The translations under genes and the position numbers were made by a program. A stretch of DNA of 24,000 nucleotides from Peptacetobacter hiranonis (GTDB lineage Bacteria; Bacillota; Clostridia; Peptostreptococcales; Peptostreptococcaceae): assembly GCF_008151785.1 (NCBI RefSeq), contig NZ_CP036523.1:1886019-1910018 (forward strand), read 5' to 3'. How positions within the stretch are numbered: the first letter of the stretch is position 1; each line of letters opens with the position of its first letter. The notes below the pieces were generated by a model, which did no database searches, had not been told where the DNA came from, and worked only from the letters and a program-made list of their open reading frames with translations. This document shows positions 1,326-11,161 of the stretch, in pieces.

Positions 1326-2837
1326 TTACAATATTTCAAATTCTTTCATTATATACGGAATTTTTTCTATAATATCAGTAGCATTAACAGTGTATTTTTC
1401 TTCAGCTATTTTGTCACCGATATATCCATGTAAATAAGCACCTACTACAGCTGCTTCAAATAAATTCATTCTTTGTCCTGCTAACGATGTTATTATACCT
1501 GTTAGGCAATCTCCCATTCCACCATTTGCCATGGCACTATTTCCAGTCATATTTATATATGTAGTATATCCATCTGTTATAACTGTTCTATTTCCTTTTA
1601 AAAGTACTATTGATTTAAGGTTTCTAGCTGCTTCCTTAGCTGCATCTATCCTATTTTCATTTATATACTCCATAGAAAATCCTGTTATTCTTGATAATTC
1701 TGCTGGATGTGGAGTGATTAAAGTCTCAACATTACTATTTTTTAAAATATCTTTATTGTTTTTTAAGCTGTTTATTCCATCTGCATCTATAATCACAGGA
1801 CATTTTACTATTTTTAAAATCTCCTCTAATATATTTAAAGTTGTTTTATTATCTCCCATACCAGGACCAATTCCTATAGCATTACTATTTTCAATAAGCT
1901 TTTTCACTCGTTCCTCTTCAGAATAGTTTACTGTCATAGCCTCCGTAAAAACTGTGCATAGTTTTTCTTGAACATCTTCATCACTTATAAGAGTAACCAG
2001 TCCACTTCCAGTTTTTACTGCTGATTCAGTCGCAATCTTGGCTGCTCCATAAAAACCTCTACTTCCTGCCACTATGCTAACTCTTCCAAAATTTCCTTTA
2101 TGTGCGTTTTTATCCTTTTTATTTATAAATCTTGCAATTTCACTTTTATCCATTATAAATTCACCATTATGAAATTTATCTTTTATAAATTTAGGTACTC
2201 CTATTTCTTCTACAACAATCTCTCCTGTATATTCATCTGACCTATAGTTTAAAAATCCCCTTTTATAAAATTCGAAACTTATAGTTTTATATGCTTTTAC
2301 AGCAATGCCTCTTATTTCACCTATATCGCTATCTAATCCAGATGATATATCTATAGCATATGTTTTTTTAGAAAATCTATTAATTAAATCTATAGCCTCT
2401 GCAAAAATTCCTCCAACATCTCTCTTTAAACCAGTTCCAAATATAGCATCTACACAAGCATCTGAATTTTTTAAAGCTTCTTCTAGATCTATCCTATTTT
2501 TATCATCTAAAAATCTAAGATTTACACCCATATTCTCAAGAATTTTAAAATTAATTAAAGAGCACTCAGTCAATTTTTCTTTTTTTCCAACCAAAAATAC
2601 TTCTACTTTCTTTCCTATTACAGAAAGTTTTCTAGCTATTCCAAGTCCATCTCCACCATTATTCCCAACTCCACATACAAGCGTATAAGAGTTATTTTCA
2701 TCTATATCTAAATTTTTAATCGCTGAATTTACAGCATTTTCCATCATTACAATTAATGGAATTTCAAGCTCTGTTACACACGCATTATCCATATTTTTAG
2801 TAAGATTAGAAGTTCCTACTAACATCAAAATCACCAA
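1326..2837 (-). CDS. nnr: Bifunctional NAD(P)H-hydrate repair enzyme (N-terminal epimerase, C-terminal ADP-dependent dehydratase)
   Basis: 503 aa. The YjeF-N motif GVGNNGGDGLGIARKL is in the N half. The carbohydrate-kinase-like C half contains HKGNFGRVSIVAGSRGFYGAAKIA, GPGMG and GGMGDCLTGIITSL. The start is uncertain: GTG at 2837 or ATG at 2825. Confidence 0.9.
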   Translation of the reverse strand: MVILMLVGTSNLTKNMDNACVTELEIPLIVMMENAVNSAIKNLDIDENNSYTLVCGVGNNGGDGLGIARKLSVIGKKVEVFLVGKKEKLTECSLINFKILENMGVNLRFLDDKNRIDLEEALKNSDACVDAIFGTGLKRDVGGIFAEAIDLINRFSKKTYAIDISSGLDSDIGEIRGIAVKAYKTISFEFYKRGFLNYRSDEYTGEIVVEEIGVPKFIKDKFHNGEFIMDKSEIARFINKKDKNAHKGNFGRVSIVAGSRGFYGAAKIATESAVKTGSGLVTLISDEDVQEKLCTVFTEAMTVNYSEEERVKKLIENSNAIGIGPGMGDNKTTLNILEEILKIVKCPVIIDADGINSLKNNKDILKNSNVETLITPHPAELSRITGFSMEYINENRIDAAKEAARNLKSIVLLKGNRTVITDGYTTYINMTGNSAMANGGMGDCLTGIITSLAGQRMNLFEAAVVGAYLHGYIGDKIAEEKYTVNATDIIEKIPYIMKEFEIL

Positions 2838-2915: not shown

Positions 2916-3974
2916 TTAATCATCATCTTCTTCATCGTCATCATTATTCTCGCTATTATAATCATTATCGTCACTATCATCGTCATCATCAGTGTTATTT
3001 CTACTTGAATCTTTTTCTTTTATCTCTTCTCTATCGTTGTCGTCATCTTTATAATCATTTACAGAATTATTGTTTTTACTGTTATTTGAGCGTGCTTTAT
3101 TTTTATAATAGTCCTCTATCTCGTCTATATCATCATCGTCATCATCTTCATAACCTTCGCTTCTATCCTCTAGCTCATCTAGTATCTCCTCTCTCAAATA
3201 AGCATATTTACCGTCTTTTAACATTTGGTTAAGCTTATCTATTGTCATACCTTCAATATCGTCCTCTTCTATCATCTGCATCGCTGCATATTCACCCATT
3301 GAAATTTCAGTATTTTTATTCTGCTGTATCTTATTTTTAGCTACTCTTATATACATAATATTTAAACCTTTAAACTTCTGGCTTATCAATTTTTTTATTT
3401 CTTTTTCGTAAGCTATATCGTCAGCACCTTCAAAACAAAGTGCTACCAATACTCTTCCATTTTTATTATTTTTAGAATCTTGTTTTATCTGTTTATAAAG
3501 CTGATCTAAGACTACAGCAAAGTCGTCATCATCTGATATATTCAAGTTTCCGTTTATTAATGATGCAGAATTTACTTTTTTATTTTTATCAAGATTTAGC
3601 TCTAAACTACTTCCATTTTCATCAAATGATACAGTAGCATAAGACTTAGGAGATGATGTATATATCACAGTCCCCACAATAATAGCTATTGTTGCAGCTA
3701 CTGTTACCAATCTTTTATAAACTGTACTCATCTTCTTTTTATTTCTTTCCTTTTTTTCATTGAAATCTATAACATTAGATTTTTCCTGATTTTCTTCCTT
3801 TTCAGTATCTACAATACTACTTTCATCAGCATTATATAAATCTTCTTCTAAGAAATATATCTTGTCACCGACATTCATTCCTTCTTTATTTTTTATTCTT
3901 AAAAATTCTGATTCGTTGGTAACAACTATCGAATATTCGTCCTTAATCTCTATAATAATTCCTTTATATAGCAT
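2916..3974 (-). CDS. rsgI: Anti-sigma-I factor, RsgI-like: N-terminal RsgI domain, one TM helix, extracytoplasmic domain, poly-acidic tail
   Basis: The N-terminus MLYKGIIIEIKDEYSIVVTNESEFLRIKNKEGMNVGDKIYF matches the RsgI N-terminal anti-sigma domain pattern. There is a single TM helix (LVTVAATIAIIVGTVIYT). I place the start at ATG 3974 (SD GGGGAGA upstream) rather than the track start 3998, which overlaps sigI. The gene begins 2 nt after the sigI stop. Confidence 0.7.
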   Translation of the reverse strand: MLYKGIIIEIKDEYSIVVTNESEFLRIKNKEGMNVGDKIYFLEEDLYNADESSIVDTEKEENQEKSNVIDFNEKKERNKKKMSTVYKRLVTVAATIAIIVGTVIYTSSPKSYATVSFDENGSSLELNLDKNKKVNSASLINGNLNISDDDDFAVVLDQLYKQIKQDSKNNKNGRVLVALCFEGADDIAYEKEIKKLISQKFKGLNIMYIRVAKNKIQQNKNTEISMGEYAAMQMIEEDDIEGMTIDKLNQMLKDGKYAYLREEILDELEDRSEGYEDDDDDDIDEIEDYYKNKARSNNSKNNNSVNDYKDDDNDREEIKEKDSSRNNTDDDDDSDDNDYNSENNDDDEEDDD

Positions 3975-3976
3975 AA

Positions 3977-4645
3977 TTATCTCCCCTTCTTTATCCACAG
4001 TTTTAAATTTCTATATCCTCTAAAGAGTATAATTATAACTGTTATAATAAACAACTTGCTCTTTCTAATCACTTTTTCGCTTACATCAAACCTATCAGAC
4101 ATATTTTTTATAGGTAATCTCTTTTTCATAAACATGAAATCTGTTATATCTTTTTCTTTACTAGATTTTTCAGATATGTCTATTGCTTTTTCTCTAGTAT
4201 CTTTATGCTTTGGAGCCTCATTTACAAGTTCTTCAAAACCAAATCCAAATTCCTCTATTTCTTCTTTTAATTGATTTATCTCGTTTATAGTAAACTCTCT
4301 ATTCAAATCCTCTTTGTCGTGATCTTCTAAATTCTCTACTAAGTCAGTTCCCTTTTCTTTATATTCTTCTATAGATTTATTTTTACTGTACTTGTTCTCT
4401 TTTTCAAAGAAATTTTTCAATCTGCTCTCGATTACTAACCTAGAAAAAGCATAAAAATCTCCTTTTTCTTCTTTGTATTTTTCTATAGCTTCTACAAAAG
4501 CTATCATACCTATGCTGTATTCGTCATCATTTTCTATAGACACATACCTTCCTGTGAATTTACTTATACAAGAAATTATAAATGGTATATGTTTTTCTAT
4601 AAATTCTTCGCTTACCCGAATTTCCTTTGTTTTTATATTTTCCAT
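3977..4645 (-). CDS. sigI: RNA polymerase sigma factor, SigI family
   Basis: 222 aa. The sigma-70 region-2-like segment (YSIGMIAFVEAIEKYKEEKGDFYAFSRLVIESRLKNFF) and the SigI-type C-terminal domain (RLPIKNMSDRFDVSEKVIRKSKLFIITVIIIL) are present. It lies immediately upstream of an RsgI-type gene. Confidence 0.75.
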   Translation of the reverse strand: MENIKTKEIRVSEEFIEKHIPFIISCISKFTGRYVSIENDDEYSIGMIAFVEAIEKYKEEKGDFYAFSRLVIESRLKNFFEKENKYSKNKSIEEYKEKGTDLVENLEDHDKEDLNREFTINEINQLKEEIEEFGFGFEELVNEAPKHKDTREKAIDISEKSSKEKDITDFMFMKKRLPIKNMSDRFDVSEKVIRKSKLFIITVIIILFRGYRNLKLWIKKGR

Positions 4646-4917
4646 ATAATCCTACCTTCTCTATTCCAAAAATAATTTCTAAACAAAATATTTTAATAAA
4701 TTTTCTATTTTTCTTTTTATTATATAATACAATAAATTTTCAGAATTTAGGTAAGTTTTATATTACAAATAAAATCAAATTATATAAATTTTTCCATCAA
4801 ATTTTAAATTTTTTTAACATCGCTAAACACTAGTATTTTCAATGTTTATATTTTCTATTTTTATCAATAAAATATATCAAATTTTCTAAAAACTTCAAAA
4901 AATTTTAAATTTTATTG

Positions 4918-4946
4918 TTGACAGAAAAAAATCTCTGAGCTACAAT
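4918..4946 (+). promoter_or_regulatory. Sigma-A type promoter of the ABC importer leader (TTGACA-17 nt-TACAAT)
   Basis: TTGACA at 4918-4923, exactly 17 nt of spacer, TACAAT at 4941-4946. The predicted TSS is near 4953. Confidence 0.65.
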
Positions 4947-4986: not shown

Positions 4987-5044
4987 ATTTTAAATTTTTA
5001 ATTATTAAACGAAGAAGAATTATTAAGGAAAAGGAGAGAACGTT

Positions 5045-5095
5045 ATGAAGACTTTAAAGAATAAACAGAGACGATTTTATTATAGCCACTATTAG
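5045..5095 (+). CDS. Leader peptide 1, 16 codons, MKTLKNKQRRFYYSHY (3 Tyr in the last 5 codons)
   Basis: GGAG at 5033-5036 lies exactly 8 nt before ATG 5045; the stop TAG is at 5093-5095. Tyr codons are at 5078-5083 and 5090-5092. The ORF end overlaps an RNA segment that can pair downstream. It is followed by two intrinsic terminators and then the permease gene. Confidence 0.55.
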   Translation: MKTLKNKQRRFYYSHY

Positions 5096-5210
5096 ATCGG
5101 TTTGTATCGATTCGATGCGAATAGGTACAGGCCGTTGGGATTTTTACGACTGTATCTATGTTGGCTAAGTTTCGATTTGTTTGTTTTGTAAAGTTTTTAT
5201 AAAATATATC

Positions 5211-5244
5211 GGCCACATAGAGCGAATACTATGTGGCTTTTTTT
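5211..5244 (+). terminator. Leader 1 intrinsic terminator A
   Basis: GCCACATAG (5212-5220) / CTATGTGGC (5229-5237), an 8-nt loop, then T7. Confidence 0.75.
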
Positions 5245-5282
5245 AATATATTTATATATAAATTATTTTTATATGAATATTT

Positions 5283-5321
5283 AGGCCGCATAGAAATCTA
5301 AACTATGCGGCCTTTATTTTT
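5283..5321 (+). terminator. Leader 1 intrinsic terminator B (tandem)
   Basis: AGGCCGCATAG (5283-5293) / CTATGCGGCCT (5303-5313), a 9-nt loop, then TTATTTTT. Confidence 0.75.
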
Positions 5322-5395
5322 ACAATTTTTTACTTTGAAAGTTTAGTTATTAAAAATAAAAATCAAAAAAGTTTTTAAAAGGAGTGTTTAAATTT

Positions 5396-6235
5396 ATGAT
5401 TTCAGTAGTTACACAAAGTTTAATTTTAGCAATTATGGCGATTGGGGTATACATTACCTTCAAAATACTAGACTTCCCAGATATGACAGCAGATGGAAGT
5501 TACACAATGGGAGCTGCAATATCAGCAGCAGCACTTGCGGGAGGATTAAATCCACTAGTTGGAGTTTTACTTGCAGTAGTTGGAGGAGCTTTAGCAGGAA
5601 TGGTTACAGGTCTTCTTCACATAAAAGTAAAAATCTCAAATCTATTATCAGGAATACTAACAATGGGGATGCTTTACTCAATAAATCTTAGAATAATGGG
5701 AAAATCAAATATACCACTATTCACATTCCCTAATCTATTCAAAGGTAATATACCTCCAGTAGTAATAGCACTTATATTCGTATTAATAGCAAAAATATTA
5801 CTTGATCTATTCTTAAAAACAGGACTTGGATACACATTAAAAGGTGTTGGAGATAATGAACAGATGATAAAATCACTTGGAATAAACATAGGAAATATAA
5901 AAATATTAGGACTTATGATATCAAATGCTTTAATAGCATTATCTGGTGCTCTAATGGCACAGTTCCAAGGATTTGCAGACGTAACAATGGGAATTGGTAC
6001 CCTAGTACTTGGTATAGCATCAATAATAATCGGACTTACATTATTCAAAAAAATCAGAGCTGTAAAAGCTACAACAGCAATACTAATAGGTGCTTTCATC
6101 TACCAGTTCACTATCTACTTCGCACTAAACTTAGGAATGCTTTCTACAGATTTAAAACTTATAAGCTCACTTGTAATCGTTACATTCTTAGCAGTTGGTA
6201 ATCTTCAGTTAAAAAAGAAAGCTGAAAGTAAATAA
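5396..6235 (+). CDS. ABC importer permease (COG4120-type, branched-chain-permease-like fold)
   Basis: Highly hydrophobic multi-TM protein (MISVVTQSLILAIMAIGVYITFKILDFPDMTADGSYTMGAAISAAALAGG...). I prefer ATG 5396 over the track's GTG 5384, because GTG 5384 overlaps the SD AAAGGAG (5378-5384). It is followed by the cognate ATPase and SBP genes. Confidence 0.85.
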   Translation: MISVVTQSLILAIMAIGVYITFKILDFPDMTADGSYTMGAAISAAALAGGLNPLVGVLLAVVGGALAGMVTGLLHIKVKISNLLSGILTMGMLYSINLRIMGKSNIPLFTFPNLFKGNIPPVVIALIFVLIAKILLDLFLKTGLGYTLKGVGDNEQMIKSLGINIGNIKILGLMISNALIALSGALMAQFQGFADVTMGIGTLVLGIASIIIGLTLFKKIRAVKATTAILIGAFIYQFTIYFALNLGMLSTDLKLISSLVIVTFLAVGNLQLKKKAESK

Positions 6236-6343
6236 AAATATAAATAAACAAAAGAAAAAAATATGTAACAAAATAAATCAAATAATAAAATACAGAATAA
6301 TCAATATTTTCAAATATTTATATCACTAAAAGGAGAGATAAAA

Positions 6344-7099
6344 ATGCTACAGCTAAAAAAAATAACTAAAACCTTCCCAAATCCATGTGGAGATGATAAT
6401 ACAGTTTTAAACAAACTTTCAATAGATATACCAGACGGAGAATTTGTATGCATCGTAGGAAGTAATGGTACTGGTAAATCCACTTTATTAAATATAATCT
6501 CTGGATTATTAAAAGAAACATCAGGACAGATTTTATTAGATGGAACAGATATTAGTAATCTTCCTGAACACAAAAAAACTCAGGTAATCAGTAGAGTTTT
6601 CCAAAATCCTAGCTTAGGAACTTGCCCTTCAATGACAGTTAGAGAAAATCTTTCTCTAGCATTAAATAAAGGGAAACTTTTAAATCTTAGAAAATGTCTA
6701 AGACATACAGATGATACACTTGAATCTTTATTAGAAGGTATATCACTTGATTTAAAAAAATTCCTTGATACACAGGTTCAGTTCTTATCTGGTGGACAAA
6801 GACAGTCATTATCGCTAATAATGTCTTGTCTAGCAGATCCAAAGGTACTACTACTTGACGAACATACAGCAGCACTAGATCCAAAAACATCAAATGAAGT
6901 AATAGCTCTTACTAACGACATAGTTAGAAAGAAAAACATAACTACACTTATGGTTACTCATAATCTTAAACACGCTCTAGAATACGGAGATAGACTTGTT
7001 ATGCTACACAAAGGAGAAATTGTAATGGATGTTACTGGCGAAGATAAAAAAAATATGACTGTTGAAGATATTTTAGAAAAATTCGAATACGCTGTATAA
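6344..7099 (+). CDS. ABC importer ATP-binding protein (COG1101-type)
   Basis: Walker A GSNGTGKST, ABC signature LSGGQRQ, Walker B LLLDEHTAALD and H-loop VTHN are all present. The SD AAAGGAGAG precedes the ATG. Confidence 0.9.
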   Translation: MLQLKKITKTFPNPCGDDNTVLNKLSIDIPDGEFVCIVGSNGTGKSTLLNIISGLLKETSGQILLDGTDISNLPEHKKTQVISRVFQNPSLGTCPSMTVRENLSLALNKGKLLNLRKCLRHTDDTLESLLEGISLDLKKFLDTQVQFLSGGQRQSLSLIMSCLADPKVLLLDEHTAALDPKTSNEVIALTNDIVRKKNITTLMVTHNLKHALEYGDRLVMLHKGEIVMDVTGEDKKNMTVEDILEKFEYAV

Positions 7100-7189
7100 C
7101 AAAATTTACCAGACTCAAATATTATTAAAAAACTAAAAAAATACCAACCAAACCAAACTAAAAAATACTAAAAATCGGAGGACACTATT

Positions 7190-8191
7190 ATGAAAATTAA
7201 CAAGAAATTAATCGCACTTATAACTACAGGAATTTTATCAATTTCAATGCTTACTGGCTGTTCAAGTGGAGGTGAATCTACTTCTTCGGACTCAGTTAAG
7301 AAAGTAGGTATAACCCAGCTTGTAGAACATCCATCTCTTGATCAGACTAAAGAAGGATTCATAAAAGCATTAGAAGACAATGGTTATAAAGACGGAGAAA
7401 ATGTAGAAATAGACTATCAAAATGCTCAAAATGATAACCCCACTTCTCAGACAATTGCTAGTAATTTCGTAAATGACAAAAAAGATTTAATCTATGCAAT
7501 ATCTACTCCATCAGCTCAAGCTGCATTCAATGCAACACAAGATATTCCGGTATTATTCACAGCTGTAACAGATCCAGTAGAGGCAGGCCTTGTAAAATCT
7601 TTAGATAACAAAGACGGAGGAAATGTATCAGGTACTTCTGACTTCTTATCAATAGACAAAACTATGTCTTTAGTTGAAAAATTAACTCCACAGGCTAAAA
7701 AAATAGCTGTAATATATTCTACAAGTGAAGTTAATTCTAAAGTTCAGGTTGATTCTTTAAAAGAATATGCTAAAACTAAAGGCTGGGAAGTAATAGAAAA
7801 AGGAATCAGTGCATCTTCAGAAGTAAATCAGGCTATAACTTCAGTTGTAGGAAAAGCAGATGTTCTTTACGTTCCAACAGACAACCTAGTTGTATCTTCA
7901 ATGCCTATAATAGCTAAAGTTGCAAATGAAAATAAATTACCTATAATCGCATCTGATGAAGGTTCTGTAACATCTGGAGCTCTTGCTTGTGGTGGTGTTG
8001 ACTACTATCAGTTAGGATACAAAACTGGTGAAATGGCAGTTCAGATATTAAAAGGTGAAAAACAGCCTTCTGACCTAGCTGTAGAAACTATGGACGAACC
8101 AGTTATAACTATGAATGAAGACACTATGAAAACTTTAGGTATAGAAAAACCAGCTGATATTGACGTAAAACTTGTTAAAACAGAAAATTAG
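7190..8191 (+). CDS. Lipoprotein solute-binding protein 1 of the importer (COG2984 / ABC_sub_bind family)
   Basis: Signal peptide plus lipobox LTGCSSG. The core KKVGITQLVEHPSLDQTKEGF...TPSAQAA...FTAVTDPVEAGLV...GTSD is typical of this family. SD is GGAGGA. Confidence 0.85.
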   Translation: MKINKKLIALITTGILSISMLTGCSSGGESTSSDSVKKVGITQLVEHPSLDQTKEGFIKALEDNGYKDGENVEIDYQNAQNDNPTSQTIASNFVNDKKDLIYAISTPSAQAAFNATQDIPVLFTAVTDPVEAGLVKSLDNKDGGNVSGTSDFLSIDKTMSLVEKLTPQAKKIAVIYSTSEVNSKVQVDSLKEYAKTKGWEVIEKGISASSEVNQAITSVVGKADVLYVPTDNLVVSSMPIIAKVANENKLPIIASDEGSVTSGALACGGVDYYQLGYKTGEMAVQILKGEKQPSDLAVETMDEPVITMNEDTMKTLGIEKPADIDVKLVKTEN

Positions 8192-8255: not shown

Positions 8256-8284
8256 TTGACACTGTGTATTTTATATTCTAGAAT
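8256..8284 (+). promoter_or_regulatory. Sigma-A type promoter of leader 2 (TTGACA-17 nt-TAGAAT)
   Basis: TTGACA at 8256-8261, a 17-nt spacer, TAGAAT at 8279-8284. The predicted TSS is near 8291. A CodY-like 13/15 box (AATTTTCAAAAAACT, 8240-8254) abuts the -35. Confidence 0.6.
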
Positions 8285-8371: not shown

Positions 8372-8416
8372 ATGAAAACTAGACTTTATTATTACTATTA
8401 TAACCTATATATTTAG
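8372..8416 (+). CDS. Leader peptide 2, 14 codons, MKTRLYYYYYNLYI (6 Tyr, 5 of them consecutive)
   Basis: GGAG at 8360-8363 lies exactly 8 nt before ATG 8372, the same spacing as leader 1. The MKT start is also shared. Tyr codons are at 8387-8401 and 8408-8410; the stop TAG is at 8414-8416. Two intrinsic terminators and the SBP2 gene follow. Confidence 0.6.
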   Translation: MKTRLYYYYYNLYI

Positions 8417-8536
8417 AGGCTGTATCTAAACTAGCATAATGTACGGATACAGACCTCGGTAAATACAATCCAGGGCTTTGTGTCTGTGCAGGTTATAATA
8501 ATAAGTCAATTTTATGAAGTTTCATTACTTATATAT

Positions 8537-8575
8537 AAGCCGCATAGATCGAGAATTATGTGGCTTTATTTTTTT
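8537..8575 (+). terminator. Leader 2 intrinsic terminator A
   Basis: AAGCCGCATA (8537-8546) / TATGTGGCTT (8557-8566), including one G-U pair, with a 10-nt loop and a T-rich tail TTTATTTTTTT. Confidence 0.7.
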
Positions 8576-8593
8576 AGTAATATAATGATTAAT

Positions 8594-8633
8594 AAAAGCC
8601 ATGTAGTCTTAAACTATATGGCTTTTATTTTTT
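8594..8633 (+). terminator. Leader 2 intrinsic terminator B (tandem)
   Basis: AAAAGCCATGTAG (8594-8606) / CTATATGGCTTTT (8614-8626), including one G-U pair, with tail TATTTTTT. Confidence 0.7.
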
Positions 8634-8731
8634 CCCTGGAAATCAAATCAAAAACCTATCAAACGACAAATCAAATATAAATTCAAAATCAGAAACTTCA
8701 AATACACTAAAATAATTCGGAGGAAAATAAA

Positions 8732-9721
8732 ATGAAATCAAATAAAAAAATATTATCTTTAATACTATCTTTAACATTAGGAGCAACATTACTTACAGGA
8801 TGCTCAGGTGGTGGAAAATCTTCAGGATCATCTGATGAAGTAAAGAAAATAGGTATAACTCAGCTAGTTGAACATCCAGCACTTGACCAGGCAAGAGAAG
8901 GATTTATAGAAGGACTTAAAGAAAATGGTTTTGTAGAAGGAGAAAACCTAGAAGTAGATTTCCAAAATGCTCAGAACGATAACCCTACTTCTCAGACAAT
9001 AGCTAGCAACTTCGCAAATGATAAAAAAGACTTAATATTTGCAGTATCTACTCCATCTGCTCAGGCTGCATTAAATGCTACTCAGGATATACCAATAGTA
9101 TTCACAGCAGTTACAGATGCTGTTGAAGCTGGACTTGTAAAAAGCAATGAATCATCAGAAAATAATGTAACTGGTACATCTGATGCAATACCAGTAGATA
9201 AATCATTAGAACTAATAAAAAAATTCGTACCAAATGTTAAAACAATCGGTGTTGTTTGCAACACAAGTGAAATAAACTCTAAATTACAGGTAGATACTTT
9301 AAGAAAAGCTGCTGAAAAAGAAGGTATAAAAGTAATAGATAAAGGTGCAACTCAAGCAAATGAAGTTAACCAGGCGGTTGCAGCAGTTGCAAAAGAAGCT
9401 GATGTAATATTCACACCAACAGATAACCTAGTAGCATCTTCAATGCCTATAATAACTAAAGTAGCAACTGAAAATAAGATACCCGTTATAGGTTCTGAAG
9501 AAGGACATGTTGAAAATGGCGCACTTGCTTGTAATGGAATAAACTACAAAAATCTTGGTAAAAAAGCTGGAGAAATGGCAGCTCAGATACTAAAAGGTGA
9601 AAAACAACCTTCTGAAATACCAGTAGCTACTATGGAAGAAACTACAATAATAATAAACAAGTCAACAATGGAAAAACTTGGAATAAAAGATCCTCAAATA
9701 GAAAACGCAATATTTAAATAA
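8732..9721 (+). CDS. Lipoprotein solute-binding protein 2, paralog of SBP1 (COG2984 / ABC_sub_bind family)
   Basis: Lipobox LTGCSGG. It is collinear with SBP1 over the full length, with about two thirds of residues identical by eye, including the block QNAQNDNPTSQTIASNF. It has its own promoter, leader and SD (GGAGGA). Confidence 0.85.
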   Translation: MKSNKKILSLILSLTLGATLLTGCSGGGKSSGSSDEVKKIGITQLVEHPALDQAREGFIEGLKENGFVEGENLEVDFQNAQNDNPTSQTIASNFANDKKDLIFAVSTPSAQAALNATQDIPIVFTAVTDAVEAGLVKSNESSENNVTGTSDAIPVDKSLELIKKFVPNVKTIGVVCNTSEINSKLQVDTLRKAAEKEGIKVIDKGATQANEVNQAVAAVAKEADVIFTPTDNLVASSMPIITKVATENKIPVIGSEEGHVENGALACNGINYKNLGKKAGEMAAQILKGEKQPSEIPVATMEETTIIINKSTMEKLGIKDPQIENAIFK

Positions 9722-9838: not shown

Positions 9839-11161
9839 ATGAGTAAAAAACAATTTAGTAAAGAAGAAACATTAGAGCTATCAAAAAATCCATTTGTAAA
9901 GAATGTAAGCTGTAAATCAATAACATATACAAATGAATTTAAAATACATTTCATAACAGAATACAATAAGGGAAAAAATCCAACACAGATATTTAAAGAA
10001 GCAGGTTTTGACACTAACATCATAGGTGCAAAACGTATTAAATGCGCTAGCGAGCGATGGAGAAAGTCATATAAAGAAAATGGTATTTTGGGACTAGATG
10101 ATTCTAGAGTTAATAATTCTGGAAGACCAAGAAAAAGAAAATTAACAGATAAAGAGATAATAGATAAGAAGGATGCTGAAATAGCATATCTTAAAGCAGA
10201 GCTAGAACTAGTAAAAAAGCTAGACTTCGAAGAAAGGCAGGTGATGAATAATAAGCTACCTTCGGTGAAAATATTCAAATTAATTAATGATGTAATAAAT
10301 AAATATTGTTTAAAAAAAATGATAAAACATCTATGTATTGTTGCAGGAGTATCTAGATCTGGATTTTATAACTATTTAAAAAACAAGAATGTAATAAGCA
10401 AACAAGAAGAAAAGGATTTAGAAGCAAAAGAAATAATTCTTAAAGCATATAAGTTCAGAGGATACAAAAAAGGTTCTCGTTCAATAAAAATGATTTTAAA
10501 AAGTAAATTTAATATAATATTTAACAGAAAAAAAATTCAAAGAATAATGAAAAAATATGGAATTAAATGTCCTATTCGCGAGTCAAATCCAGCTAAACGT
10601 ATGGGAAAAGCAAGAAAAGAACATCACACAGTTCCTAATAAATTGAATAGAGAATTTAAACAAGGTATACCAGGAAAAGTACTTTTAACTGATATTACGT
10701 ATATGCCGTACGGCAATGGGAAAACAGCATATTTATCAACTGTAAAAGATTCTTCTACGAATGAAATTTTATCGTATCATTTATCGAAGAATTTAAAAAT
10801 GGATATTGTTATTTCAACTATTAACAATCTCATGTTATCAAATTCAGACAAATTACATAAAGATGCATTTATTCATTCTGATCAAGGAGTTCATTATACA
10901 AGTACTATTTTTCAGAACTTGTTAAAAAAATATAATTTAGGTCAATCTATGTCTAGAAAAGGTAATTGTTGGGACAATGCTCCGCAGGAGTCATTCTTTG
11001 GTCATATGAAAGATGAAATAGATTATAAAAGTTGCAATACATTTGAAGAGTTAAAAAGTTTAATAGATGATTATATGGATTATTATAATAATGATCGTTG
11101 TCAGTGGAATTTAAAACAGCTGACTCCTATTCAATATAGAAGTCAGCTGCTTGCTGCTTAA
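9839..11161 (+). CDS. IS3-family transposase: HTH plus leucine-zipper N-terminal part fused in frame to the DDE (rve) catalytic core
   Basis: 440 aa. The N-terminal HTH region is followed by a coiled coil (EIAYLKAELELVKKL), then a second HTH (LCIVAGVSRSGFYNYLK). The DDE core shows DITYMPY, IHSDQGVHYTS and GNCWDNAPQESFFGHMKDE. Confidence 0.9.
   Translation: MSKKQFSKEETLELSKNPFVKNVSCKSITYTNEFKIHFITEYNKGKNPTQIFKEAGFDTNIIGAKRIKCASERWRKSYKENGILGLDDSRVNNSGRPRKRKLTDKEIIDKKDAEIAYLKAELELVKKLDFEERQVMNNKLPSVKIFKLINDVINKYCLKKMIKHLCIVAGVSRSGFYNYLKNKNVISKQEEKDLEAKEIILKAYKFRGYKKGSRSIKMILKSKFNIIFNRKKIQRIMKKYGIKCPIRESNPAKRMGKARKEHHTVPNKLNREFKQGIPGKVLLTDITYMPYGNGKTAYLSTVKDSSTNEILSYHLSKNLKMDIVISTINNLMLSNSDKLHKDAFIHSDQGVHYTSTIFQNLLKKYNLGQSMSRKGNCWDNAPQESFFGHMKDEIDYKSCNTFEELKSLIDDYMDYYNNDRCQWNLKQLTPIQYRSQLLAA

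Follow-up and report, generated by a model that had tools for sequence, protein, structure and literature searches.

The E. coli trp attenuator chooses among three overlapping helices (1:2, 2:3 and 3:4) ahead of a single terminator: a stalled ribosome antiterminates, while either no translation or full translation terminates. In the his leader of Salmonella and E. coli, the helices A:B, C:D and E:F exchange with B:C and D:E, and a ribosome stall shifts the register segment by segment to the terminator; the only terminator there is the last hairpin, and the segments all differ in sequence. Where riboswitches or attenuators occur in tandem, each terminator has its own sensor domain. Here we describe two RNA leaders (leader 1 and leader 2) in a 24-kb stretch of the Peptacetobacter hiranonis genome (NZ_CP036523.1, positions 1,886,019 to 1,910,018; hereafter the window), each of which places one short, tyrosine-rich open reading frame (ORF) ahead of two intrinsic terminators, A and B (Table 1). 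The element is very probably a tyrosine-sensing leader-peptide attenuator of the class that contains the trpB motif and sRNA_2410. We lean, by a small measure, towards a fuller explanation in which it would sense charged tRNA-Tyr, control a tyrosine or aromatic amino-acid importer of the ATP-binding cassette (ABC) type, and pass its second terminator by a relay in which segment 4 of terminator A pairs with segment 5 of terminator B (4:5).

The leaders share with the trp attenuator the three-state logic and a terminator that is thermodynamically stronger than the antiterminator; they differ from it in an extra switch (A':B against B:C) that would read the stop-codon position, and in a long-range helix, P0, that would sequester the leader AUG. 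Like the his leader, they contain a chain of at least five overlapping helices (1:2, A':B, B:C, 2:3, 3:4, 4:5, 5:6), which exists and is conserved and along which a register shift would propagate. Such a domino is of a known kind; new here is that the intermediate hairpin 3:4 is itself a terminator, with seven U, and that its arms are repeated, so that copies can be added (relatives have two to four) and the device is extendable. As in tandem riboswitches, two intrinsic terminators stand in series, but one sensor precedes both: the A+U-rich spacer between terminators A and B (44 nucleotides (nt) in leader 1, 24-29 nt in leader 2) contains no ORF or aptamer.

Two catalogued RNA families and one functional analogue are close to these leaders. 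The trpB motif (Rfam RF04312; SRC-39-1) was described in 2024 as an orphan 'strong riboswitch candidate' with >900 members, most of which precede an uncharacterised ABC transporter (PMC11109978). The small RNA (sRNA) sRNA_2410 of Enterococcus faecium Aus0004 (RF02863) is 195 nt long, was validated by Northern blot and is 'produced as two transcripts' (PMC5593968). The streptococcal trpX/TrpXYZ tryptophan ABC transporters are T-box-controlled (PMC9382623); they share with the window leaders the transporter family and control by tRNA charging through premature termination in the 5' leader, but a T-box reads uncharged tRNA directly, whereas here the ribosome would be the reader.

At Rfam gathering thresholds, neither the window nor 16 relatives gave a match. 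In E-value mode, the model of the trpB non-coding RNA motif scores 32.9 bits (5118-5248), 31.6 bits (5251-5322) and 37.5 bits (8440-8575) in the window, against a gathering score of 59. Its scores rise across the relatives (L numbers, L001-L206, denote related loci or leaders compared with the two leaders of the window): 38-44 bits in L006, 42 in L010, 47 in L138, 50 in L021, 59.2 in L201 and 64.5 in L192, the last two reaching the gathering score. Stem P1 of the motif corresponds to B:C, with TTGGCT on the conserved GGCU, and is followed by terminator A with CCGCGUAG-type arms; the antiterminator lies in the right shoulder of P1, able to pair with the 5' arm of the terminator, and both B:C and 2:3 are conserved. 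The commonest context of the motif, the 5' untranslated region of an amino-acid-type ABC transporter, agrees with the order seen in the window. The model differs in having no leader ORF, segment 1, A', P0 or second terminator, and the motif was published as a riboswitch, whereas the evidence here points to ribosome-mediated attenuation.

The RF02863 model scores 23.8 bits in the window (gathering score 61) and 47.2 bits in the best relative, L138. Its consensus contains segment 1 paired with segment 2, hairpin A':B and two more hairpins, the first with the arms GCCaCGuaG/CuaAGuGGC; it differs in being annotated as a trans-acting sRNA candidate rather than a leader, and in second-hairpin arms unrelated to the first. 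The two models match overlapping parts of the same elements (L201 914-1107, L138 4886-5111, window 5082-5262). The leader is a sub-threshold relative of both families. RF04312 and RF02863 probably describe one RNA class, and the Enterococcus 'sRNA' is likely a prematurely terminated leader, whose two transcripts are what two termination sites in one leader would be expected to give.

Table 1. Coordinates of the leader elements and the genes behind them, in positions of the window (SD, Shine-Dalgarno sequence; MFE, minimum free energy; bp, base pairs).
Feature	Position	Strand	Description
Promoter, leader 1	4918-4946	+	TTGACA, 17-nt spacer, TACAAT; consensus match 11/12
SD of leader ORF 1	5031-5038	+	AAGGAGAG; read from sequence
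Leader ORF 1	5045-5095	+	encodes MKTLKNKQRRFYYSHY, then stop (5093-5095); Phe codon 5075-5077, Tyr codons 5078-5083 and 5090-5092
Leader 1 segment 0	5043-5074	+	5' part of leader ORF including AUG; 5' strand of long-range helix P0
Leader 1 segment 1	5083-5097	+	TAGCCACTATTAGAT (TAGCCAC..TAGAT); within ORF and across stop codon; partner segment 2
Leader 1 segment A'	5098-5108	+	starts 3 nt past stop codon; pairs with 3' part of B (MFE helix 5098-5108:5124-5134)
Leader 1 segment B	5121-5134	+	partner either A' (upstream) or C (downstream); B:C is 5121-5130 with 5150-5159
Leader 1 C/segment 2	5150-5167	+	CTGTATCTATGTTGGCTA; hub strand; pairs B via 5150-5159, segment 1 via 5154-5167, segment 3 via 5156-5166
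Segment 2, part pairing segment 1	5154-5167	+	ATCTATGTTGGCTA
Leader 1 segment 0'	5172-5202	+	spacer from segment 2 to terminator A; 3' strand of P0
Leader 1 terminator A	5211-5245	+	segment 3 5211-5220 GGCCACATAG, loop, segment 4 5229-5239 CTATGTGGCTT, seven U; -14.8 kcal/mol
Leader 1 spacer hairpin, A+U-rich	5248-5280	+	5248-5258:5270-5280; would bring segments 4 and 5 together
Leader 1 terminator B	5283-5322	+	segment 5 5283-5293 AGGCCGCATAG, loop, segment 6 5303-5313, U-rich tail; -18.7 kcal/mol
Operon under leader 1	5396-8191	+	ABC permease 5396-6235, ATPase 6344-7099, lipoprotein substrate-binding protein 7190-8191
Promoter, leader 2	8256-8284	+	TTGACA, 17-nt spacer, TAGAAT; consensus match 11/12
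Leader ORF 2	8372-8416	+	encodes MKTRLYYYYYNLYI, then stop; Tyr codons 8387-8401 and 8408-8410; segment 1 inside (8399-8406)
Leader 2 switch region	8418-8497	+	A' 8418-8426, B 8441-8456, C/segment 2 8473-8497
Leader 2 antiterminator strand	8484-8494	+	CTGTGCAGGTT; stretch pairing segment 1 is 8490-8497
Leader 2 segment 0'	8495-8525	+	ATAATAATAAGTC (8495-8507) with Tyr-codon stretch 8382-8394; AGTTTCAT (8518-8525) with ATGAAAAC (8372-8379)
Leader 2 terminator A	8537-8576	+	segment 3 8538-8547 AGCCGCATAG, segment 4 8556-8566 TTATGTGGCTT, U tract; -12.5 kcal/mol
Leader 2 terminator B	8591-8636	+	17 bp; core segment 5 8596-8606 AAGCCATGTAG, segment 6 8613-8625, U tract; -20.0 kcal/mol
Second substrate-binding lipoprotein gene	8732-9721	+	solitary, under leader 2; paralogue of the operon-1 binding protein

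A probable sensing switch

Every segment and pairing that the initial annotation had drawn exists in both leaders at its assigned position, and every helix forms. The duplex energies of 1:2, 2:3, 3:4, 4:5 and 5:6 are -10.5, -11.3, -15.2, -15.4 and -19.9 kcal/mol in leader 1 and -4.7, -10.5, -13.2, -11.5 and -14.7 kcal/mol in leader 2, where 1:2 joins TAACCT (8401-8406) to AGGTTA (8490-8495). The full-length folds were compared with dinucleotide shuffles and gave z = -9.97 for leader 1 and z = -7.21 for leader 2. Both Tyr-rich ORFs, of 14-16 codons, have AAGGAGA 6-9 nt upstream of the start, and aromatic codons are frequent in the last part of each: three Tyr and one Phe among the last six sense codons of leader 1, six Tyr among the last nine of leader 2. 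The most conserved stretch of the leader is C/segment 2. Three marks of a classic attenuator were found here: a translatable ORF with SD and start, regulatory codons cognate to the putative substrate and, in silico, a terminator and an antiterminator that exclude each other according to ribosome position.

From the anatomy, the comparative data and the folding we infer a three-state mechanism. Without a ribosome, the leader would zip into one long rod (P0, 1:2 and A':B), and terminators A and B would form. When tyrosine is plentiful, a ribosome at the stop codon would cover segment 1 and A'; B would then pair with C, the 5' half of segment 2, leaving segment 3 to segment 4, and transcription would terminate. 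When tyrosine is scarce, the ribosome would stall on the Tyr codons (Tyr12/13), covering segment 1 but not A'; A':B would form, C/segment 2 would be set free for the antiterminator 2:3, and RNA polymerase would pass terminator A. The A':B/B:C switch would tell a stalled from a terminating ribosome, both of which mask segment 1. The sensing scheme first proposed, in which a stall simply masks segment 1, captured the outline of the chain but omitted its most conserved switch, as well as helix P0.

To evaluate this logic more quantitatively, we calculated the probability of the antiterminator, P(2:3), by partition-function folding just before segment 4 emerges, in 13 leaders. P(2:3) is 0.00 in all 13 leaders without a ribosome, and reaches 0.69-0.99 in 11 of them with a ribosome stalled on the aromatic codons, the ORF being covered to the stalled codon +12 (0.94 in leader 1, 0.86 in leader 2). 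With the ribosome at the stop codon it is 0-0.48 (0.11 and 0.35, respectively). Two results weigh against the mechanism: L010 and L021 do not give the 2:3 ensemble that the model predicts, and in leader 1 a single 28-nt footprint gives a P(2:3) of 0, with P0 winning.

The switch helices were then compared in an alignment of 18 related leaders, in which slid-control helices are 28-53% paired. Helices 1:2 and A':B are 96.8% and 96.9% paired, each with three compensatory pairs; 2:3 (96.6%), B:C (85-91%) and 3:4 (89%) also carry compensatory changes. RNAalifold independently predicts 1:2, A':B and 3:4. The covariation that had been noted between leaders 1 and 2 thus extends to the wider alignment for both 1:2 and 2:3. 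Within the window it comprises two true compensatory pairs in 1:2 (G-C to A-U and A-U to U-A) and a real replacement of U-A by C-G in 2:3 (alignment columns 126/187). This covariation, together with the P(2:3) ensembles, supports the assignment of the short Tyr-rich ORF as the sensor and of segment 2 as the antiterminator of terminator A. Across the aligned sequences there is no conserved multi-helix junction or pocket, just mutually exclusive predicted hairpins. We hold it highly probable that the leaders are ribosome-mediated leader-peptide attenuators with A':B / B:C / 2:3 logic.

The helix missing from the first scheme, P0, is extensive. In the MFE structure of leader 1 it consists of 5043-5056:5189-5202, 5058-5069:5176-5187 and 5072-5074:5172-5174 (14 + 12 + 3 bp), with a duplex energy of -25.9 kcal/mol and z = -6.9, and it is present in all 14 leaders tested (z -1.3 to -6.9). 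P0 covaries: the two strands of L013 pair with -21.1 kcal/mol, as against -13.7 kcal/mol or weaker for cross pairs, and in leader 2 it is the Tyr codons that pair with ATAATAATAAGTC. Its pairing accounts for the nucleotide-level conservation of the peptide N-terminus (M-K/N-T-L-x-N-K-Q). In nested folding, P0 excludes 2:3; in leader 1, P(2:3) rises to 0.94 with a second ribosome on the AUG, so that P(2:3) is high only when the AUG region is occupied too. The P site of a ribosome stalled at codon 11 lies exactly 30 nt from the AUG. P0 may coexist with 2:3 as a pseudoknot, demand a queue of ribosomes, or close the leader after the decision; its role could be to shut off re-initiation, to act as an anti-antiterminator, or to impose the requirement for a second ribosome.

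Codon content across related leaders

The same leader lies upstream of permease homologues throughout the Peptostreptococcaceae loci that we compared, with about 25 leaders in Peptacetobacter, Clostridioides, Metaclostridioides, Asaccharospora, Peptostreptococcus and 'Clostridium' culturomicium. The covariance model that we built for it, which scores leader 2 at 120.6 bits, gives 27 full-length matches >88 bits in those loci and one 5'-truncated match (L007); L001, L002, L004, L006 and L008 have second leaders. Metagenome contigs were scanned with TGTATCTRTGTTGGYT, and the real leaders among the matches listed were L138 (131.6 bits) and L192 (44.6 bits, weak), the rest being almost all chance. 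The L138 leader ORF (4847-4903, encoding MNRLSHSKLICGFNSQFR before its stop) contains within it a hairpin, CGCATAG...TATGCGG, similar to the terminator arms, and two tandem aptamers of the cyclic di-GMP-I riboswitch class (3413-3496 and 3599-3688) lie about 1.2 kb upstream of that leader on the same strand.

Across the roughly 25 leaders, the ORF is conserved in frame with SD and ATG, and changes in length by whole codons only. A strong SD precedes the ATG by 6-9 nt in 22 of the 24 leaders listed; in L014 and L015 the correct-frame ATG is preceded by GGAGGG. The stop codon abuts a conserved GGGTTTGTA in the leaders found, and in most of them A' starts at the stop codon or no more than 3 nt from it.

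The C-terminal half of the ORF falls into distinct types. It is Tyr-rich in the window leaders, in the C. difficile leaders L006b and L023, and in L009, L010 and L019 (for example, YYYYYSHYF in C. difficile), and Phe-rich in L006a, L014-L017 and L020 (for example, RFFSSQFS and RFSFNSQF). The two types occur as paralogues within one genome, in C. difficile (L006) and in M. mangenotii (L010 and L014). The C. difficile leader of the Phe type heads a permease, an ATPase and a CD0876-like binding protein, and the Tyr-type leader heads the next system, which, as we infer from the gene numbering (PMC6816091), ends in CD0873.

The third type, in relatives from the Lactobacillales, carries Trp codons and comprises seven loci: L192 and six that encode homologues of its binding protein (L201-L206, from Desemzia, Carnobacterium, Isobaculum, Tetragenococcus and Furfurilactobacillus). 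In each of the six, an SD precedes an ORF whose last codons read x-W-Q-S-(Q/H)-x-x-stop, or nearly so, beside A'; the Trp codon is conserved in the ORFs of this type (L205 has two), and the N-terminal parts are unrelated. NCBI names the binding proteins of L201-L206 tryptophan-specific. The L192 protein has Gln at the position of Tyr-279 in CD0873, and the Trp-binding protein SP1069 has Gln at the same position (PMC6816091). Part of the conservation of the Trp motif may be structural, since the Trp-type TTGGCAAAGCCAA could form a small hairpin. Between the second terminator and the binding-protein gene, L201 (1123-1161), L192, L202, L203 and L204 have another mini-ORF, which is preceded by an SD of its own and carries a conserved K/R-R-W motif (for example, MKKKVTKRWRNK before the stop); it may be a second, translational Trp-sensing step.

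In the sequences compared, then, the regulatory codons of the ORF (Tyr, Phe or Trp) track the type of transporter, and the RNA core is unchanged. No other argument speaks as strongly for the ribosome as the sensor and against a riboswitch class. How well could a ligand-binding riboswitch, or recognition of the repeated GCCACAUAG hairpins by an RNA-binding protein, explain the leaders, with the ORF merely incidental? This reading was the favoured one when the trpB motif was described and listed as a strong riboswitch candidate (PMC11109978); the trpB model does give sub-threshold matches at 5118-5248 and 8440-8575, and RNA pairing (P0 and 1:2) accounts for part of the peptide conservation. However, codon content is the only feature that tracks transporter type, the ORF stays open, in frame and with an SD despite indels and a divergent N-terminus, the stop codon abuts A' throughout, a conserved multi-helix junction or pocket is lacking, and the describing authors could not themselves exclude a classic attenuator (PMC11109978). 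We consider such a mechanism very improbable.

Candidates of other kinds were rejected. The T-box model RF00230 has no match in the window even at E <= 10, and the same model does detect a T-box in L021, where a bona fide T-box leader (1708-1968, minus strand; 96.1 bits) is located on the strand opposite to the Tyr-type leader, about 0.8 kb upstream of it. A TRAP-like protein binding UAG repeats found no support. A terminator of a convergent gene is excluded, the upstream genes being divergent; the genes of a SigI-like sigma and an RsgI-like anti-sigma factor (2916-4645, minus strand) run divergently from leader 1.

Possible coupling of the two terminators

If segment 2 opens terminator A, what would open terminator B? 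The initial annotation had proposed that the segment 4 freed by 2:3 pairs with segment 5, a near-copy of segment 3, so that segment 6 would be left partnerless and terminator B would be passed as well. In transcripts that leak past a formed terminator A, segment 4 would stay locked in 3:4 and terminator B would stop the transcript; a second terminator would in this way filter leak without taxing induced expression. We give this 4:5 relay an even chance. Its feasibility holds up (barriers, best partner, arms kept across genera); its specificity is what the data call into question, through the control pairing 3:6, an isoenergetic 2:5 fold and unrelated second terminators in some relatives.

A terminator scan recovers three of the four window terminators; terminator B of leader 1 (5283-5313) was found with our own hairpin scripts, which detect all four. 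Within the 24-kb window, GCCRCATAG (<=1 mismatch) is confined to these four hairpins. Of all upstream stretches, segment 4 pairs best with segment 5 in leader 1 (z -3.7), leader 2 (z -3.4), L006a and L010 (z -3.4 to -6.2 over these four leaders). The spacer hairpin of leader 1 only modestly beats shuffles (z = -2.4), as do its equivalents in L001 and L002 (to -2.9). Segments 4 and 5 are only 5-12 nt apart in many relatives, making 4:5 a compact hairpin, and there 2:3 + 4:5 is as stable as 2:3 + 5:6 (L009, L010, L012). A nested long hairpin, 3:6 + 4:5, returned by a search in 60-nt windows, was rejected as an artefact of shortened segments 3 and 6, since two separate hairpins are more stable.

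Equilibrium folding to position 5297 places 4:5 in the MFE structure in every ribosome state, and we therefore used path barriers. These are direct-path barriers for 10 valid leaders (the L013 row was left out because its first terminator was wrong). Going from 4:5 to 5:6 costs 8-10.6 kcal/mol in eight of the 10, a barrier equal to or above the 7.9-9.3 kcal/mol from 2:3 to 3:4; the same method gives 5.8 kcal/mol for the experimentally established E. coli trp antiterminator. The relay is energetically sound, with 2:3 and 4:5 barriers that exceed the trp benchmark except for 4:5 in leader 2 and L021. The leak path from 3:4 to 4:5 is uphill, with a barrier of 10.6-17 kcal/mol, so that terminator B would still catch leak.

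Several observations weigh against the relay. Over 22 adjacent terminator pairs, in-register pairing of 4:5 stands at 97.0%, and its observed values are matched by only 4-5 of 500 shuffles; but the control 3:6, dispensable for the relay, stands at 96.0% (27-50 of 500 shuffles). Were the relay all that mattered, 4:5 would be expected to be better kept than 3:6; an asymmetry count gives 190 Watson-Crick pairs, 28 G-U pairs and 7 mismatches for 4:5 against 182, 33 and 10 for 3:6, and of 25 adjacent pairs, which are not phylogenetically independent, 13 favour the relay and seven the control, with five ties. The relay barrier is low in leader 2 (5.0 kcal/mol) and L021 (5.7 kcal/mol), because terminator B there has extra pairs beyond 4:5 (seven in leader 2). 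In the second leader of L004 (P. hominis), L192, L201-L203 and L206, the arms of the second terminator are unrelated to the first; the best upstream partner is weak in the L004 leader (z = -2.1), and none is significant in the others. L204 keeps a partial 9-bp arm match, and L205 has no evident second terminator. Since relatives carry one with unrelated arms, a second terminator need not imply a relay. The class as a rule has two terminators; look-alike arms belong to its Tyr/Phe branch in the Peptostreptococcaceae.

The near-equal conservation of 4:5 and 3:6 and the unrelated second terminators are also what would be expected if the attenuator were real, segment 2 opened only terminator A, and terminator B were an uncoupled fail-safe that always stops a fixed fraction of polymerases, its look-alike arms being the product of tandem duplication or gene conversion. 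Duplication is indeed ongoing: L020 has four near-identical terminator copies, with similar loops, pointing to recent tandem duplication, so that shared arms can arise by descent. In contrast, the arms are common to all two to four terminators of a leader across genera, despite loops, spacers and proteins that have diverged (permeases are 60-75% identical), and Peptostreptococcus has changed both of its terminators together, to CCGCC/GGCGG. A strong constitutive terminator B, with the perfect U tract seen in most species, would cap induction with no gain in dynamic range, and 4:5 is physically unavoidable once segment 4 is free, behind a barrier above that of a validated antiterminator. On this balance we think an uncoupled terminator B unlikely, at roughly half the weight of the relay.

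A second alternative is that segment 2 is recycled: after terminator A has been passed, segment 4 would displace segment 2 from segment 3, and the released segment 2 would pair with segment 5. The energies of leader 1 speak for this and against the relay, as 2:5 (-12.0 kcal/mol) equals 2:3 (-12.1 kcal/mol) and 3:4 + 2:5 is slightly more stable than 2:3 + 4:5 (-39.3 vs -37.3 kcal/mol), with a barrier of 9.5 kcal/mol to terminator B; the 2:3 to 3:4 barrier of about 9 kcal/mol would permit the rearrangement during a transit to terminator B that we estimate at about 1 s. In most relatives, however, 2:5 is clearly weaker than 2:3 and 4:5 (in that order, -7.6/-12.2/-15.3 kcal/mol in L006a, -5.1/-10.3/-11.1 in L013 and -7.0/-9.6/-12.0 in leader 2). 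Recycling barriers lie below relay barriers in nine of the 10 valid leaders, the exception being leader 2 (5.2 vs 5.0 kcal/mol), and segment 5 finds its best upstream partner in segment 4 rather than in segment 2. Recycling therefore appears improbable.

The initial annotation had also held that the relay explains why all four terminator 5' arms share GCCRCAUAG. The relay is a plausible reading: it is physically sound and the simplest account of the identical arms, and the comparative data do not separate it from descent by duplication or from re-use of segment 2.

Taken further, the relay would make the leader a shift register, in which each hairpin hands on to the next the state set once by the stalled ribosome, along two to four terminators whose arms are identical; the later ones would stop just those polymerases that had leaked past a correctly formed earlier terminator and would be transparent to licensed read-through. 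The >900-member trpB-motif class would then consist of leader-peptide attenuators whose amino-acid specificity is reprogrammed by codon swaps. We advance this extended reading tentatively, at somewhat less than even chances. Under it, terminator copy number could evolve freely, because tandem duplicates of terminator A would fall automatically under the same control. There are three copies in the Phe-type leaders of M. mangenotii (L014, L015 and L017, ~3845-3957) and four in 'Clostridium' culturomicium (L020 3700-3871). The first terminator itself varies: in L016 (3782-3942) its loop has an insertion of about 40 nt that folds into its own hairpin, and in many species its U tract is broken by a conserved UUCG(U/C)G (L006 3876-3887, L010 3924-3930, L021 2977-2987), the last terminator of those species having an uninterrupted U run. 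Termination at the first hairpin may be weaker than at the last.

Transporter operons and significance

The window contains two transcription units, each headed by a near-consensus promoter, and in the related loci a promoter is visible at the position equivalent to that of leader 1. The binding proteins encoded behind leaders 1 and 2 match the C. difficile protein CD0873 (PDB 6HNI) with E = 3e-125 and E = 1.6e-116, respectively, and both have an acidic residue at the position of Glu-263 and Tyr at that of Tyr-279. The crystal structure of CD0873 contains bound tyrosine (PMC6816091). As close homologues of CD0873, they identify the window operons as putative importers of tyrosine or aromatic amino acids. 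The equivalent of Glu-263 does not discriminate proteins behind Tyr-type from those behind Phe-type leaders, as it is acidic in all; only Trp-type proteins differ. In a protein search with the window permease (5396-6235), proteins named for P. hiranonis are 100% identical to it, and all variants listed were >96% identical. The binding-protein gene behind leader 2 has no permease or ATPase gene of its own, and a transposase gene of the IS3 family (9839-11161) lies directly 3' of it.

These results provide a testable mechanism for an orphan RNA class that has been filed as a strong riboswitch candidate, based on the Tyr, Phe and Trp codons of a previously unremarked ORF. The relay, if true, would offer a simple gain in dynamic range, in which extra terminators filter leak at no cost to induction and duplicates come under control for free, and the principle would be reusable in synthetic biology. 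The same leaders head the C. difficile tyrosine-uptake operons, including that of CD0873, a colonisation factor and vaccine candidate, which feed p-cresol production; expression of these operons would be tied to the charging of tRNA-Tyr or tRNA-Phe.

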